A DNA stretch of 31,866 nucleotides from a virus (lineage: Duplodnaviria > Caudoviricetes). The stretch is taken from the IMG/VR virus record IMGVR_UViG_3300046011_011201, positions 1-31,866 of that record. One strand, 5' to 3'. How positions within the stretch are numbered: position 1 is the first letter of the stretch; each line of letters begins with the position of its first letter. The translations under genes and the position numbers were made by a program. Shown piece after piece: positions 15,133 to 30,246 of the stretch. The notes beneath the pieces are model-generated. The model was not told the DNA's origin and made no database searches. It worked only from the letters and a program-made list of their open reading frames with translations.

Positions 15133-16185
15133 ATGTCATTTACAAGACTCGAAAATTCAGATTTTTTAGTAGGAGTTGATTCAATAACAGCAACTTGTTG
15201 GAGTAACAATACTCCAACTTTAACTAAATTCTATACTTCATCAACACAGGAAGCTGGATCATCAGGAAATTATTATTTAAGTGTATATCAAACTGCCTCT
15301 AGCCTTTCATCAGCTGAAAAACAATTTGATATAGTTTATGGAAATAAGGTGGGTAGTGGAAGTGTAAATTATAATGATTTAGTACCTGGAGTGTCATACA
15401 CTAAAACAATGTATGGACAATATAGAAATTTAGTTTTAGGAGATGAAAATTCAGATTTTAATTTTGGAGGAACTACTGTTACTGATATTTATGTATTATC
15501 AATTTCAAGAACACTATATAAAGAAAGTTTATTTCCAGGATCTTTAAATTTAACTTTATATTCTGGTAGTGGAGCTGGTAAAAGAACAATTAATATTACT
15601 GATAATAGTAATGACGTAACAACAATAACTTATACAGATGCTGGAAGAGTATTCAACTTAGTTAGTGGTAGTAATGGTTCGGCCATAACTACTTCTCCTT
15701 TTTCAGGAGTAACAGCAGGTTATACTCCTTCTGGATCTTATGGTTGGTTTTTACCAGATATAGGAACCATTATTTTAAATCCAGCAGCATTAGATTTACC
15801 ATATGCTAGTGGAGGTATAAATTTAGCAACAAGTAGATCTTCTGACTCTTCAGGAAATAATAATAGTAGAATTTTCCAAAGAATAGCCTCAGGAAGTGAT
15901 GTTAGTGGAAGTTTCTCATTAAATAGTCAAGAAACTATCACTTCAGATTATATATATGTAAGAGTAAAAAATGCTGAATTTAATTATTCTGAAAATCCTA
16001 GTTTTATATCAGGAAGTACAGGAGAATTAGTATTCTCGGACTTTATTAATAATCCTAAAACATATGTTACTACAGTTGGATTATATAATGATAATAATGA
16101 ATTATTAGCCGTAGCAAAAATGTCAAGACCTCTTAAAAAAGATTTTACTAAAGAGGCACTTGTGAGGATTAAATTAGATTTTTAA
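15133..16185 (+). CDS. virion structural protein, paralog of 16196..17572
   Basis: C-terminal EFNYSENPS...YVTTVGLYNDNNELLAVAK..RPL is shared with the next gene. Confidence 0.65.
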   Translation: MSFTRLENSDFLVGVDSITATCWSNNTPTLTKFYTSSTQEAGSSGNYYLSVYQTASSLSSAEKQFDIVYGNKVGSGSVNYNDLVPGVSYTKTMYGQYRNLVLGDENSDFNFGGTTVTDIYVLSISRTLYKESLFPGSLNLTLYSGSGAGKRTINITDNSNDVTTITYTDAGRVFNLVSGSNGSAITTSPFSGVTAGYTPSGSYGWFLPDIGTIILNPAALDLPYASGGINLATSRSSDSSGNNNSRIFQRIASGSDVSGSFSLNSQETITSDYIYVRVKNAEFNYSENPSFISGSTGELVFSDFINNPKTYVTTVGLYNDNNELLAVAKMSRPLKKDFTKEALVRIKLDF

Positions 16186-19807: not shown

Positions 19808-20767
19808 ATGATATCATTAGTTGGAATTTTAAAAGATATAATTTCTGAAGGAGGTAATGTATTTGGTACTACTTCTTCTATTAAAAAAGAATATATCCAA
19901 CCTACTTTAGAAAAATTTACTAAAGAACTAAAACGTGTTTATCCAAAAGTTGATTTCAAATTTAATACTTTAGGATCAGTAGGTAAAAAAGACGAATCTG
20001 GAGATATAGATTTAGCTTTAAATGTAGATCAATTTATGTCTAAAGAAGGTGAACCATTATTAGATAAATGGAATCTAAATCCTACAGAATTTGAAAATTT
20101 ATTTGAAAAAATTAGAAAACGTGCCCGATCTGCTTCTGAAACACAAAGTAAACTTAGAACAATGTTAGAGTTAATAGCAACTCAACTAGAAGAAAAATCT
20201 CAACTTATAACAACTGATATTAAAGCTGCAGGTGGAGGTTCTATATTTTGTAATTTCCCCCAATTTGATAAAAATGGAAAAGAAATATTTGAAAAATCAG
20301 TTCAAATTGACATTAATGTTGGAAATATAGATTGGTTAAGTTTTAGTTATTATTCTAATACTTATAAAGATAATGTAAAAGGATTACATAGAACTCAATT
20401 AATGTTATCTATGTTTTCTGAAGCAGGTTTATCTTTTAATCATAATAGAGGGGTAACAGATAAAGAAACTGGTGAATTAGTAGCTTCAAATCCTCAAGAA
20501 GCTATACAAATTTTAAATGATAAATATAATATTAATTTAACTCAAGATATTTTAAATGATTATTTTGAGTTAATGGATTATATTAAAAATAATCTACCTA
20601 AAAATAAATTAAATAATATTTTAGATAGATATTTAAAAATATTAGACTCTACTAGAGCTGATATTCCTTTAGATTTACAAGACTATTGGATTAAAAACCA
20701 AGATAGGTTAGAATTAAAAGGAAAATTCCTACCAGATAACTCTAATTTAATAAAATATAAAAAATAA
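19808..20767 (+). CDS. Pol-beta superfamily nucleotidyltransferase with cleavable-type leader
   Basis: LGSVGKKDESGDIDL (hGS..DxD) and a third acidic residue in VQID; N-terminus MISLVGILKDIISE then GGNVF. Confidence 0.75.
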   Translation: MISLVGILKDIISEGGNVFGTTSSIKKEYIQPTLEKFTKELKRVYPKVDFKFNTLGSVGKKDESGDIDLALNVDQFMSKEGEPLLDKWNLNPTEFENLFEKIRKRARSASETQSKLRTMLELIATQLEEKSQLITTDIKAAGGGSIFCNFPQFDKNGKEIFEKSVQIDINVGNIDWLSFSYYSNTYKDNVKGLHRTQLMLSMFSEAGLSFNHNRGVTDKETGELVASNPQEAIQILNDKYNINLTQDILNDYFELMDYIKNNLPKNKLNNILDRYLKILDSTRADIPLDLQDYWIKNQDRLELKGKFLPDNSNLIKYKK

Positions 20768-23700
20768 TGTCAGGATCAGCAGGTGGGAACAGAATACCTA
20801 GAGCAGTAGTAGAAAAAACTGTTCAAGATTATATAGACAAAATTCTATCCAAATTCCCAGGCTTTAAAAAAGCTAAAATAACAGGTTCATATAATGCTGG
20901 AGTTAAACAAGATTTTGGAGATATTGATTTAATAGTTCAATTAGAGGGTACAGATAAAAAATTAATTAAACAAGATTTAGCTAAATATTTTGCTACTTTT
21001 CCTGATTCAGTTATAGTACCATTTAAAAGTGATAAATATAAAGGTAAAAAATCACTTAGTAGTGGTGAATTAGTAACTATATTATATCCAATAATTAATA
21101 CATCTGATCAATTTGTTCAAATAGATAACATTGTTTCTATTAGTGAAGAAGAATTAACCTTTAAAAACTCATTCCTAGACTACCCAGCTGAAATACAAGG
21201 TTTACTTTTAGGTTTAGCTAAAATAATTTGTTTAGAAGAAAATCCAAAAGATATATTTAAACGATTAGGTATTACCAATGTTCCTGAACTTGAACCTAAT
21301 CAAGAATATGAATTTAATTTATCTGGAGCAGGCTTAACATTACGTATAGTAACATTAGATAATTTTAAAGAAATAGATAGAACTGATGTATGGAAATCAT
21401 CGGATTGGAATACTGTTAAAAAATTATTTATTAATTATAATATTAATACTGATTTTGAAACATTATTAAAAGATTTATCTACTAATTTGAAAAATCCACG
21501 TTCTAAAAATCGTGTTAAAGGCTTATTTAAATCTATGGTATCTGTTAAAAGTGGAGAAAAAAATACTCCAAAAGGAGATAATAAAGAAAAAGCATTACAA
21601 GCAGTAGATAAATTATTAGAAAACAATTATATTAAAAATTTAGGAGAATATTTAGTAGCTTCTTTACTTCCTGAAGAATTTATTAATTCTCTCCCTAAAC
21701 AAACTATAGCTTTATACCCAGGTAAATTTAAACCACCACATAAAGGACATTTAGAAGCTGTAAAATATGCATTACAAAAAGCTGATAAAGTTATAATTAT
21801 AATCTCCCCAAAATCCTTTGAAGAATATAATGATGAACAATCAAAACAAATTTGGGAATTATATGAAAAAACATTAGGCTCAGATGCTTCTAAAGTTGAA
21901 ATAAAAATTTCAAAAGATCCTTCACCAATTAAAACAGCATATGAAATTATAGAAAATGATCCTGTAAACAATTACATGGCATTATATGGTAAAGGAGAAT
22001 CAAATAGATGGAAATCTTTAAATAATAAAGAAAAATACCCAAATGCTGAACCTTTAGATTTAGGTAGTATTGAAAATAAAAATATAGAAGGAACTTCTGA
22101 AGTTATTAGTTCTACTAATTTAAGACAAGCTATTAAAGATGGTGATAAAGATCGTATAAAAACCTTTTTACCATATGGAGTAGATATAGATCAATTTTTA
22201 GAGATAATAAATAAAAAACCCGAAGATAAAAATATTCAAGAAAAAATATTATCTTATGAATTAGATGATATTGATTATTATGCTGATCAAAAATTATCTC
22301 CTTTAGATGTAAAATTTAGTAATCATTTTTTTGATAGAGTAAATGACCCTAGAAACAAAAAAGATATAACCGATATTGAATTAATAGCATTTTTTGATAG
22401 ATTATCAAAATATAAAAATAAACTCATAGATTTTCTAAATAAATATAAAGAAGTATTAACCACAGATAGTAAATCAAATATTAATATCCCATTTGTAAAA
22501 CAAGCTAATAATATTATAGCTAAAACAGTAATGAGGAAATCTAATTTTGCAACTAATGATGTAAAATTAATATTTGAACAAATAAATAAAATTAATGAAA
22601 ACAATAATAATTTAGAAAAAAAATGGATACTTGATTTACCTAAATATAATCAATCTCAAACTTTAAGTTCACAGTTATTTACTCAATTATACGAATTAAA
22701 AATAAATGAGATATCTCTTAATCCAAATAATGCTGTTGAAATATATGGTGATATAGATAATGGAGATTTTACTGTAGGAGAATATGATTATAATTATAGA
22801 ATAATAAAATTAGATAAAAATCCATATAATAGTGATTCATATTATAATATTGATTTTCATGAAATAGGAAATACAAATCCGAATCCTTCTTTACCAACAA
22901 AAAATGCTAAAGGAAATTATATAAAAATATTATCAACAATTTATAAAATTATACTAGATTTTACTCAAGAAAAAAAACCAGAATACATAGGAATATCAAG
23001 TTTAGATGAAAGTGGATATGGAAATATCTATAATAATTTAACTAAAACTAATAAAATTCATGGGTATTCTAGAAAAGATGCAGGTTTACAATTTAAAACT
23101 AAAGATGGAAAATCTGGAAAAGTTATAGTTTTAAAGAAAAATAATAATTTAAACGAAAAAAATATAAATGAGGTAGGTGAAGGAACATCTCAACCATATG
23201 AAACATTTTCTAGGTACTCTAATAATGAAAAATTCCTAAAATTCTCTACAGATTCAGGAATTGATTATGAAATATCTTTATTTCCTATAAATAAATTTCT
23301 TCAAGTAGATTTTCATTTAGATACTTTTAGTGATGATATTTACCAAGAAACAAATAAAGGAGAATTATTTAGAATAATGTCTACTGTTATAAAAGAAGTA
23401 AAAGAATTTTTAAAAGAAAATAAAGATTTAGAAATATTAGGAATAAGATATGTTCCTCAAGAAAAATCTAAAAATAAAGGTGCATTTTTATCTTCAAATC
23501 AAAGAAATAAATTTTATAAAGCTTTTATATCTAAAATAGTTCCTGGAACTACTTATGTTGAACAAGGAGGAGTAGTATTTGCAATTTTTCCAAAAAAAGA
23601 AAATATTCAAGAAAATACTATAAAAAATCAAGCTTTATATATAAATAAATTAGTAAATTATTGTTGTGATGTTTTACATTTAAAAGAACGTCCAAAAATA

Positions 23701-23985
23701 GTATTAATAAATAATAATTATTATTCTCAAAAACATAAAAGTTTTGGAGGATATATTCCCGGAGAAAAAAAGATTTTTGTAGTATTAAAAGGAAGAAATT
23801 TAAGTGATATATGTAGAAGTCTTAGTCATGAAATGAAACATTTTGAGCAAGATTTAAAAGGAGTATTAACTCCTGAATCTGGACAAGATGGATCTGAACA
23901 TGAAAATGAAGCAAATAGTTTTAGTGGAAAAATAATGAGAGAATTTAACAGAAAATATCCCGAAATATTATCAATAAGTTTATGA
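20767..23985 (+). CDS. multidomain (poly)protein: Pol-beta NTase + HIGH-type nucleotidyltransferase + RelE/RegB-like domain + two related unknown domains + HExxH zinc peptidase
   Basis: ITGSYNAGVKQDFGDIDL...VQID; ALYPGKFKPPHKGH...ISSTNLR; KFSNHFFDR; two copies of DF..(K)G..(I/F).I.ST..K....F..E; SHEMKH...EHENEAN. Confidence 0.75.
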   Translation: MSGSAGGNRIPRAVVEKTVQDYIDKILSKFPGFKKAKITGSYNAGVKQDFGDIDLIVQLEGTDKKLIKQDLAKYFATFPDSVIVPFKSDKYKGKKSLSSGELVTILYPIINTSDQFVQIDNIVSISEEELTFKNSFLDYPAEIQGLLLGLAKIICLEENPKDIFKRLGITNVPELEPNQEYEFNLSGAGLTLRIVTLDNFKEIDRTDVWKSSDWNTVKKLFINYNINTDFETLLKDLSTNLKNPRSKNRVKGLFKSMVSVKSGEKNTPKGDNKEKALQAVDKLLENNYIKNLGEYLVASLLPEEFINSLPKQTIALYPGKFKPPHKGHLEAVKYALQKADKVIIIISPKSFEEYNDEQSKQIWELYEKTLGSDASKVEIKISKDPSPIKTAYEIIENDPVNNYMALYGKGESNRWKSLNNKEKYPNAEPLDLGSIENKNIEGTSEVISSTNLRQAIKDGDKDRIKTFLPYGVDIDQFLEIINKKPEDKNIQEKILSYELDDIDYYADQKLSPLDVKFSNHFFDRVNDPRNKKDITDIELIAFFDRLSKYKNKLIDFLNKYKEVLTTDSKSNINIPFVKQANNIIAKTVMRKSNFATNDVKLIFEQINKINENNNNLEKKWILDLPKYNQSQTLSSQLFTQLYELKINEISLNPNNAVEIYGDIDNGDFTVGEYDYNYRIIKLDKNPYNSDSYYNIDFHEIGNTNPNPSLPTKNAKGNYIKILSTIYKIILDFTQEKKPEYIGISSLDESGYGNIYNNLTKTNKIHGYSRKDAGLQFKTKDGKSGKVIVLKKNNNLNEKNINEVGEGTSQPYETFSRYSNNEKFLKFSTDSGIDYEISLFPINKFLQVDFHLDTFSDDIYQETNKGELFRIMSTVIKEVKEFLKENKDLEILGIRYVPQEKSKNKGAFLSSNQRNKFYKAFISKIVPGTTYVEQGGVVFAIFPKKENIQENTIKNQALYINKLVNYCCDVLHLKERPKIVLINNNYYSQKHKSFGGYIPGEKKIFVVLKGRNLSDICRSLSHEMKHFEQDLKGVLTPESGQDGSEHENEANSFSGKIMREFNRKYPEILSISL

Positions 23986-26018: not shown

Positions 26019-26489
26019 ATGACCAAAGAGGAATTTATTAACCAAATAAAACAGGCGGTTGGAAGTATTTACTCTAATGGAAAGTTTACTTATCAAAAAA
26101 GTGAAAAAGATTTCTATAAAGAAGAAGAACCTAAAGAAAAAATTTATTTTCTTGCTAAATTTCCAAATTTAAAAAGTATAATAATTAGTCTTTTAACCCC
26201 GTCTTACTCAGATTTTATAGAAGATATACATTGGGTATCACCAAAACCTACTACTTTTAAAGTAGTATTACATAATGGTCAATTTTTTTATCTTAAATAT
26301 ACAAACAAATCATGGATTGCTCAGGTAGAAGGTAAAAATTATTATTTAAGTAATGTATCTAATGAACAACAAGCTACAGAATCTATATCTCGTATATTAA
26401 GATACCCATCATCCGGTCTTACAAAAACAACTGAAACTCCTTCAGAAAAAGAAACCCCACCAGAGACACCTCCCACAGAAGAAAAATAA
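26019..26489 (+). CDS. hypothetical phage protein
   Basis: 156 aa; globular core (WVSPKPTTFKVVLHNGQ) and a P/E/T-rich tail. Confidence 0.75.
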   Translation: MTKEEFINQIKQAVGSIYSNGKFTYQKSEKDFYKEEEPKEKIYFLAKFPNLKSIIISLLTPSYSDFIEDIHWVSPKPTTFKVVLHNGQFFYLKYTNKSWIAQVEGKNYYLSNVSNEQQATESISRILRYPSSGLTKTTETPSEKETPPETPPTEEK

Positions 26490-28723: not shown

Positions 28724-29821
28724 ATGAAAATATTAAAATTAAAACAAAAAGAAAAATCTAATATTTCCGAATATGTAAATCAAGAAATATTAAATCCTTT
28801 AATTTTTGATAAAACCACAATTAAGCCTAAAGTTAAAAATGTTTTAATTAAAATAGCTGAATATTTCTGGAAAGAACTAGAAATGCCATACCCATATAAA
28901 GATATAATCCTATTAGGCAGTTCAGCAAATTATAATTGGACCCAATATTCTGATATTGATCTTCATATTTTAGTAGATTTAAACAAATACTCAGACCCTG
29001 ATTTAGTTAAAAAATATTTTAATGAAGTTAAAAACAATTGGAATAAAAATCATAAATTAAAAATAAATAATAGCAATATTGAATTATATATTCAAGATAT
29101 AAATGAACCTAATGCATCTCAAGGAATTTATTCTTTATTAAAAGATAAATGGATTAAACTACCAACATACGAAAAAATTGAAATTCCTGATTCTGAAATT
29201 AATAAAAAAGCAGATTCATATAAAAAAGAAATTGATAATTTAATAAATAATCCTGATTTAGAAAAAATAAAAAAATTAGTACAACATTTAAAAAATTTAC
29301 GTAAAACAGGATTAGAAAAAGAAGGAGAATATTCTATTGAAAATTTAGCTTTTAAAGAACTAAGAAATTCAGGATATATAGAAAAACTACTTACTTTAAA
29401 AAATAAAATAGTAGATCAAGAACTATTATCTTCTACCACAATAACAAAAGATTCTAACATACAAGAAAAAAAAGAAAAACGTGATCGTTGTCTTCGTATA
29501 GCAGATCGTAAATACGACAAACCTTCCGCTTATAAATCAGGTGCTGTAGTTAGATGTCGTAAAGGTAAAATTTGGAAAGGCATAAGTGAAGAATTAATTC
29601 GAGAAAAAGCCAAAGAAACATTACGTACTTGGTTCAAACGTAAAGGACCTAAAGGTAAAGAAGGTGGATGGGTAGATTGTAATGCACCTGATGGAGATGG
29701 AGGTTATAAAGCATGTGGTAGAAAAGAAGGAGAAAAACGCTCCAAATACCCAGCATGTCGTCCAACACCTGCTCAATGTAAAACACCTGGTAAAGGTAAA
29801 AAATGGGGAAAAACAAAATGA
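28724..29821 (+). CDS. Pol-beta superfamily nucleotidyltransferase fused to basic Cys-containing C-terminal modules
   Basis: LLGSSANYNWTQYSDIDLHILVD and IELYIQD; C-terminal PSAYKSG...LRTWFK..WVDC..CGR...YPACRP. Confidence 0.75.
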   Translation: MKILKLKQKEKSNISEYVNQEILNPLIFDKTTIKPKVKNVLIKIAEYFWKELEMPYPYKDIILLGSSANYNWTQYSDIDLHILVDLNKYSDPDLVKKYFNEVKNNWNKNHKLKINNSNIELYIQDINEPNASQGIYSLLKDKWIKLPTYEKIEIPDSEINKKADSYKKEIDNLINNPDLEKIKKLVQHLKNLRKTGLEKEGEYSIENLAFKELRNSGYIEKLLTLKNKIVDQELLSSTTITKDSNIQEKKEKRDRCLRIADRKYDKPSAYKSGAVVRCRKGKIWKGISEELIREKAKETLRTWFKRKGPKGKEGGWVDCNAPDGDGGYKACGRKEGEKRSKYPACRPTPAQCKTPGKGKKWGKTK

Positions 29822-30246
29822 TTAAATTAATAGATATATTACTTGAAAGAGACCCCAAAACTGGTACTGGTAAAAAACCTAAAGGATCAGATCGTCGTTT
29901 ATACACAGATGAAGATCCAACTGATACAGTACGTATAAAATTTAAAACTGTTCAAGATATAAAAGATACATTATCTAAAACATCATTTAAATCTAAATCA
30001 CATGCTCGCCAGTCACAAATAATTAATTTAATTCATCAACGTGTTAGAGCAGCATATCAAAATGCTAAAGATCCTGAAGCAAAAGCCCGTTTGAAAAAAG
30101 GATTAGAATATATTACTGCAAAAAAAGAAGCATCTAAAGAAAAAACAGAACGTTTACGTAAATTAAAAGAAACAACAAACCCACAATCAGGTAAAGCAGC
30201 ACCATATGGTTCTGGTTATGCTCCTGTTAAAAATGTAAAAAAATGA
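29818..30246 (+). CDS. basic hypothetical protein with MIKLIDILLE leader
   Basis: Start at 29818 gives ATGA coupling and the shared leader; DPKTGTGKKPKGSDRRLYTDEDP motif; tail GKAAPYGSGY. Confidence 0.75.
   Translation: MIKLIDILLERDPKTGTGKKPKGSDRRLYTDEDPTDTVRIKFKTVQDIKDTLSKTSFKSKSHARQSQIINLIHQRVRAAYQNAKDPEAKARLKKGLEYITAKKEASKEKTERLRKLKETTNPQSGKAAPYGSGYAPVKNVKK

Follow-up and report, generated by a model that had tools for sequence, protein, structure and literature searches.

Glutamate-joined modules in a T4-like, Immutovirus-related phage protein: a candidate head-cargo polyprotein

Can a T4-like phage make several enzymes as one long chain and let the prohead protease cut them apart? The question is raised by a 1072-amino-acid (aa) open reading frame (ORF) in the IMG/VR virus record IMGVR_UViG_3300046011_011201, positions 1 to 31,866 of which form the stretch analysed here (hereafter the window). 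A first-pass annotation, made from the letters alone, had described this ORF as a six-module polyprotein with an (I/L)-x-E site at each domain junction. The ORF stands as described (Table 1), and profiles built from relatives recover the same order of modules: a Pol-beta-type nucleotidyltransferase (NTase), a HIGH-superfamily NTase, a RegB-like fold, a GNAT-like fold, its probable paralogue and a zincin-like HExxH peptidase. From sequence comparison, it is well supported that this is a real modular protein whose glutamate joints are selected. We further infer, as the probable explanation, that the chain is packaged as head cargo and cut by a gp21-type prohead protease.

Every site named in the first-pass annotation is present (LLE285, NIQE492, INE611, INE648, LNE797, NINE802 and NIQE949), but the list was incomplete: LPE303 and LIFE604 had been missed, and the chain holds 20 (I/L)-x-E motifs rather than eight. 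This total is unremarkable because 14.3 are expected from composition. As to location, eleven of the 20 fall within the 13.4% of residues that lie between module cores (binomial p=1.3e-5), and shuffling within linkers yields a mean of 4.2 sites against the 11 observed (p=2.5e-4). The linker enrichment that had been proposed as a check is thus found, but its p-values flatter because the cores were seeded with the sites known; two independent checks therefore weigh more, namely homology breakpoints located with the motif masked and the natural start and stop positions of modules in other phages. Each of the five gaps holds at least one site, which is modest alone (p about 0.05), and the real support for the joints is the relatives rather than this count. 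A matrix trained on leaders parts linker from core sites weakly (p=0.034). E604 is more conserved (0.84, 63 aligned relatives) than E611 (0.58, 24 aligned relatives), which on these alignments makes E604 the conserved end of module 3. The earlier caution that NIQE also occurs elsewhere was justified, with copies at E88 of the sigma-like gene and E230 of the primase.

Relatives were gathered as 68 loci through the whole protein, 36 through module 4 and the best 80 of 343 through module 3. Their matches to the ORF are blocks only, ending near module ends. When all motif residues were masked, 60 of 114 homology breakpoints still lay within 8 aa of a site, compared with 26% expected; this test used 22 relatives (31 before removal of near-duplicates), and its breakpoints are non-independent and some of them spurious. 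Complete ORFs display 27 architectures of the six modules, with many further inserts and chains of up to 2,104 aa. The modules thus occur in other orders and, as had been suggested, also as stand-alone genes with leaders, found for modules 2, 3, 4 and 5.

Position-fixed glutamates flank modules 3 and 4 in these relatives. On the C-side of module 3, Glu stands at +6/+7 in all 71 internal copies (21/21 downstream neighbour groups, against an expectation of about 10%); where the module ends the chain, a stop codon occupies +6 in seven of eight copies. On its N-side, Glu is found at -6/-7 in 77 of 81 copies (19/21 groups). Module 4 is preceded by Glu at -6 in 32/32 locus copies, which amount to only two neighbour groups because a pro-piece travels with the module, and in 64/66 database proteins; on its C-side, all but one of 21 internal copies (20/21) show a Glu between +7 and +10. 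Linkers between modules 1 and 2 carry Glu at +6 to +8 in 32/33 cases, and all 33 contain [ILVF]xE within their last 14 aa. Modules 2 and 6 show no single fixed Glu offset, their Glu sites lying at variable distances.

The motif is also distributed unevenly between linkers and cores. Across 91 linkers, [ILV]xE reaches 2.30 times the shuffled expectation, compared with 0.60 times in cores, and the control endings xD, xQ, xK, xN, xS and xT range from 0.71 to 1.19 in linkers and cores alike. Core ratios for [ILV]xE fall below 0.85 in all six modules and in the product of the adjacent upstream gene (the partner), as against two of 20 other families, from which portal, capsid, scaffold, core and protease rows were excluded. 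Separately, the families at window positions 15133-16185 and 26019-26489 are depleted of [ILV]xE as the modules are (0.28 and 0.56) and may face the same protease.

Other modules lie between glutamate sites in this group of phages. A small peptide module with GKAAPYGSGY occurs in many chains (L020, L036, L037, L034; window 29803-30246), a small Cys-rich, zinc-ribbon-like module (ICDxCGWxW) stands between Glu joints in loci L010, L012, L013 and L023, and a HAD-like module (FDFDDTL) is placed between two such joints in L037:463-3675. The window holds a second jointed protein (28724-29821), composed of an NTase (PF01909), NIQE248 and a DUF5872 module; the latter is a separate leader-bearing gene (gp084) in the Flavobacterium phage vB_FspM_immuto (hereafter immuto).

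The proposed cutter is present among the relatives, which, as anticipated, encode a gp21-type protease with its own C-terminal extension after the same motif. A PF03420 protease was found in 2/5 and 16/25 of the records searched; immuto has it, and so do 6/6 of the records whose completeness reaches 90%. One of these proteases aligns with T4 gp21 (5jbl, E=1.3e-16). Nearly all of 18 proteases examined by eye have an xNE, xQE or xKE site before a short C-terminal tail. Scaffold and core proteins appear rich in such sites by eye, the single scaffold scored reaching 1.2 times the shuffled expectation, and a capsid protein carries V-x-E no further than about 5 residues from where the T4 gp23 cut projects. 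Short leaders ending in E occur on unrelated genes. Our comparisons with published systems draw on portions of PMC5512222, PMC9026906, PMC7411985, PMC10052503, PMC7824862 and PMC9239159. According to these, T4 gp21 cleaves after L/I-X-E (PMC9026906), T4 head cargo bears short targeting propeptides (PMC9026906, PMC7411985), and Alt is a known cargo protein of the T4 head (PMC9026906). As a separate observation, a long protein with GxSGxS repeats lies downstream of the head genes in one locus (L084:14190-19175).

Modules are shuffled, and glutamates nearly always stand where stand-alone copies start or stop; the chain is therefore likely to be packed into the head and cut by the protease. The likeness of module 4 to Alt-annotated proteins was also counted for this explanation. 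Six freely shuffled, enzyme-like modules joined at glutamates would be loaded into the prohead, through internal leader-like helices (residues 286-303 and 633-648) or through the leader-bearing partner. A gp21-type protease would then cut after about E285/E303, E492, E604/E611, E648, E797/E802 and E949, releasing pieces of about 32, 22, 13, 17, 17 and 14 kDa, and in-domain sites such as E748 would be shielded by folding. The small separate proteins would likely be injected into the host. The two NTase types of this predicted kit could modify nucleotides or nucleic acids, its RegB-like module could cut RNA, the GNAT-like pair acetylate and the peptidase cut protein.

Several results weigh against packaging and cutting. 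The remaining nine (I/L)-x-E sites sit within module cores, and the best-scoring site of the leader-trained matrix is one of these in-core sites, E877. Of the motif as first written, Glu is constant but position 3 is loose, being L or I in 10 of 19 neighbour groups on the N-side of the RegB-like module. The exchange of stop for Glu behind module 3 involves two lineages only, one of them nested among Glu-bearing copies; in module 1, [ILV]xD is just as scarce (0.45) as [ILV]xE; and the joint counts come from related, non-independent sequences. The ORF opens directly with module 1 and has no N-terminal capsid-targeting propeptide, and neither the immuto polyprotein nor its partner (gp088, gp089) has an N-terminal leader. 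Among 95 complete relatives of at least 450 aa, 26 open with module 1; of the remaining 69, 27 have no [ILVF]xE in their first 20 aa (first Met taken as the start). Primase and exonuclease genes, rather than head genes, precede the gene, and a sister contig stops after the portal and head-core genes, before any protease gene. The literature search returned no virion proteome or cleavage data for any homologue, the main text of the PANV1 paper containing no mass spectrometry (PMC9239159), and the portions of the papers used describe only the loss of terminal propeptides from the cargo proteins of T4 and SPN3US (PMC9026906, PMC7411985, PMC10052503).

In one rival explanation, the chain is cut at the joints but is not injected cargo. 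A gp21-type protease might act on the chain in the cytoplasm or on the prohead surface late in infection, so that the enzymes work in the same cell, an arrangement that the missing N-terminal leaders of the ORF, gp088 and gp089, the many leaderless relatives and the adjoining primase and exonuclease genes would suit. We consider it unlikely: Glu occurs within the leader of 40 of 46 N-termini that begin with the HIGH module, modules 3, 4 and 5 have leaders when they stand alone, and the gp21 substrates described in the portion of PMC9026906 used are prohead components. The chain might instead be an intact multi-domain protein whose joints are scars of fusion, left when tandem genes merged through a stop-to-Glu change (TAA to GAA) or recombined where leaders end. 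The joint codon is indeed GAA in 63 of 71 copies, with terminal stops at the same offset, 8 of 19 groups have Met right behind the Glu, and distant relatives encode the partner, module 1 and module 2 as separate leaderless genes. By the genetic code, stops also mutate to Gln, Lys, Tyr, Leu and Ser, yet each of the 71 copies has Glu at +6/+7; the residue after it takes many values, Glu is retained across the whole module 3 tree with one stop clade nested within, and scars would not lead us to expect depletion of the motif in cores. An uncut fusion protein therefore seems to us quite improbable.

Least probable, and in our judgement very unlikely, is that the HExxH module cuts its own chain, although its zincin motif is intact and such a role was proposed for the peptidases of polyvalent proteins by Iyer et al. 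2017 (PMC5512222). Self-cutting loses ground because HExxH is wholly missing from 25 of 51 complete module-3 proteins of at least 600 aa, whereas nearly all copies of module 3 are flanked by Glu; HExxH action in trans would be compatible with such chains. The same motif, moreover, marks leaders, scaffold and the prohead protease. Cutting of packaged cargo by the gp21-type protease thus stays the probable explanation.

How does this candidate compare with known systems? It resembles the T4 head cargo proteins IPI-III and Alt in the gp21-family protease of its relatives, the L/I-x-E-type sites, the short E-ending leaders on unrelated genes, the fold of module 4 that links it to Alt-annotated proteins and the capsid V-x-E near the gp23 cut. 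L/I-x-E at the ends of mature pieces, characteristic of T4 cargo, is found here with a strict Glu and a position 3 looser than in T4. T4 cargo sheds terminal propeptides (PMC9026906), whereas here up to six folded modules would separate, from an ORF that has no N-terminal leader. Like the polyvalent proteins described in PMC5512222, the ORF is a mosaic of several unrelated enzymatic domains, and its predicted types (zincin, Pol-beta NTase, GNAT, BECR-fold RNase) recur in those proteins, shuffled among phages in both cases; Iyer et al. 2017 drew the polyprotein analogy for that group (PMC5512222). In the portion of that paper used, however, an embedded peptidase is the proposed cutter and no joint motif is given, whereas half of the chains here have no peptidase, and Pol-beta NTases are reported in conjugative-element versions only (PMC5512222). 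A Pfam search of the chain gave no ArdC, MuF or MPTase-PolyVal match. The chain looks like a polyvalent protein, though likely one with a different cutter. In giant phages (phiKZ gp175, SPN3US gp245), too, a gp21-related protease cleaves many of the head proteins after Glu (PMC9026906, PMC7411985, PMC10052503), but in SPN3US all reported cuts except self-cleavage remove N-terminal propeptides (PMC10052503).

A broader proposal, which in our view could go either way, is that T4-like phages of aquatic habitats have a plug-and-play code for polyproteins: any Glu-flanked domain could join a head-cargo chain as long as 2,000 residues, from which the prohead protease would free it, and the stoichiometric injected kit would include an NTase pair, GNATs and a RegB-like RNase borne by the virion. 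If true, processing of the RNA-virus style would exist in double-stranded DNA phages, with Glu replacing start and stop codons, and prohead proteolysis would extend from propeptide trimming to the release of several enzymes per chain. It would also offer a sequence rule by which candidate injected effectors could be parsed out of large phage proteins labelled 'hypothetical', and another answer to what cuts polyvalent proteins. Our literature search found no description of prohead-protease polyproteins, with subscription papers thinly covered and the supplementary architectures of Iyer 2017 possibly including this family. Immuto is cultured, with LMO8 as its host, which makes a direct test by mass spectrometry possible.

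Table 1. Features of the candidate polyprotein locus. Positions are those of the window; aa, residues of the ORF.
Feature	Position	Strand	Details
Partner gene, probable paralogous NTase	19808..20767	+	319 aa; 14-aa leader ending IISE
Modular protein, candidate polyprotein	20767..23985	+	1072 aa, 122.8 kDa; orthologue of immuto gp088 by alignment
Module 1, Pol-beta-type nucleotidyltransferase	20767..21621	+	aa 1-285, ends LLE285; D52, D54, D120 invariant
Internal leader-like segment	21622..21675	+	aa 286-303, ends LLPE303; like N-terminal leaders of HIGH-first proteins
Module 2, HIGH-superfamily nucleotidyltransferase	21676..22242	+	aa 304-492, ends NIQE492; HxGH, H328 invariant
Module 3, T4 RegB-like fold, predicted endoribonuclease	22243..22578	+	aa 493-604, ends LIFE604; H520, R524 invariant
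Pro-piece of module 4	22600..22710	+	aa 612-648; predicted helix 633-648 ending INE648
Module 4 (domain A), GNAT-like fold, DUF6934-related	22711..23157	+	aa 649-797
Module 5 (domain A'), probable paralogue of module 4	23173..23613	+	aa 803-949
Module 6, zincin-like HExxH peptidase	23614..23982	+	aa 950-1072; H1021, E1022, H1025, E1046 invariant

The individual modules were assigned with varying strength. Module 1 matches the palm profile PF14792 under the cut-off (E=3.3e-4; 11 of 27 members match); a sequence search gave a match to Glr2806 (E=3.8e-5), and no PolX chain was among its PDB sequence matches. Its N-side is Met in 63 of 66 cases and an E-ending mini-leader in three. The ORF was said to have no leader of its own, which holds for its N-terminus, but the internal residues 286-303 are leader-like: three HIGH-first proteins have the same LLPE in their leader, and a split form with its own leader exists (L027/L028). 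Module 2 scores above the cut-off with PF01467 (E=1.1e-6) and TIGR00125. The immuto annotation of this protein as a nicotinamide mononucleotide (NMN) adenylyltransferase is not borne out for module 2 at family level, the NMNAT, NadD and CoaD models all scoring far under their cut-offs.

Structures were predicted for module 3 and for the pro-piece with module 4, low confidence at the ends being expected for cut-out pieces. The earlier RelE/RegB-like guess for module 3 gains support from its model (predicted local distance difference test, pLDDT, 74): among 48,161 chains, VIA-align placed T4 RegB (2hx6) first, with a Z score of 8.1 and a root-mean-square deviation of 2.9 over 110 aligned residues, followed by RelE/ParE proteins, of which RelE was next best (Z 6.3). 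Identity to RegB is 12%, and the match to the RegB family PF10715 is under the Pfam cut-off (21 of 36 members). We take the invariant His-x3-Arg of module 3 to recall the catalytic pair of RegB, itself a stand-alone, non-virion enzyme. The pro-piece lies ahead of module 4 whether the module is fused or encoded alone, and many of the stand-alone genes have a MIKL-type leader before it. For the module 4 model (pLDDT 77), GNATs fill the Foldseek list against the PDB, weakly (best E=6.8e-3, none at E<=0.001), while its BFVD matches comprise uncharacterised phage proteins plus several annotated as Alt in T4-like phages (E=8.4e-5); PF22028 matches under the cut-off. That domains A and A' are paralogues is supported weakly (hhalign probability 25%, E=8e-4), module 5 matching PF22028 at E=0.017 and having stand-alone leader-bearing forms (P0001, P0002). 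Module 6 gave scattered weak peptidase matches in Pfam, and none of its 21 members matched MPTase-PolyVal at E<=0.01. PDB sequence searches with module 3, module 6 and the partner were uninformative.

The partner NTase is probably paralogous to module 1 (hhalign probability 49%, E=1.8e-4). The stop codon of the partner and the start codon of the ORF overlap, and the two genes adjoin in nearly all loci. By eye, the residue before its core is Glu in 33 and Met in five of 38 placed N-termini (43 rows). Partner, module 1 and module 2 form three separate leaderless genes in a row in distant loci (L046, L057, L062), and this conserved trio therefore suggests one pathway. Both NTases retain a Gly/Ser-Gly start, through removal of Met or a cut after Glu.

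The source phage is large, uncultured, T4-like and Immutovirus-related. The window is AT-rich (21-30% guanine plus cytosine), with all genes in one direction and baseplate, primase, exonuclease and ferritin-like genes among its content; more widely, tail/baseplate genes lie on one side of the ORF and terminase/portal on the other, with primase and exonuclease immediately before it. A search of 50,697 phage records returned 13 matches, headed by four of immuto. With 42.8% identity to gp088 (YP_010114595.1) across residues 1-521, the 1072-aa protein is by this alignment its orthologue, and the immuto locus has the gene order of the window, with portal, prohead protease and gp23 genes of T4 type in its vicinity; the protease of immuto is gp070. 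Gp088 shares modules 1, 2 and 6 and the Glu joints; it differs in its length (907 aa), its other modules and its annotation as an NMN adenylyltransferase only, and the RegB-like module of immuto resides in gp080. The protein was found at 100% in two IMG/VR contigs, one of them the sister contig, which is 99% identical in the overlap and runs on to terminase, portal and core genes. Contig scans with single sequences of modules 3 and 5 gave almost no matches, and the ESM Atlas returned hypothetical viral clusters only, one with DUF6934 in 14% of its members. Finally, leaders of the form MIKL-x-x-(I/L)L-x-E open four genes of the window (28393, 29818, 30243 and 31185); in the ORF listed from 29803, the MIKL-type leader starts at the second Met.

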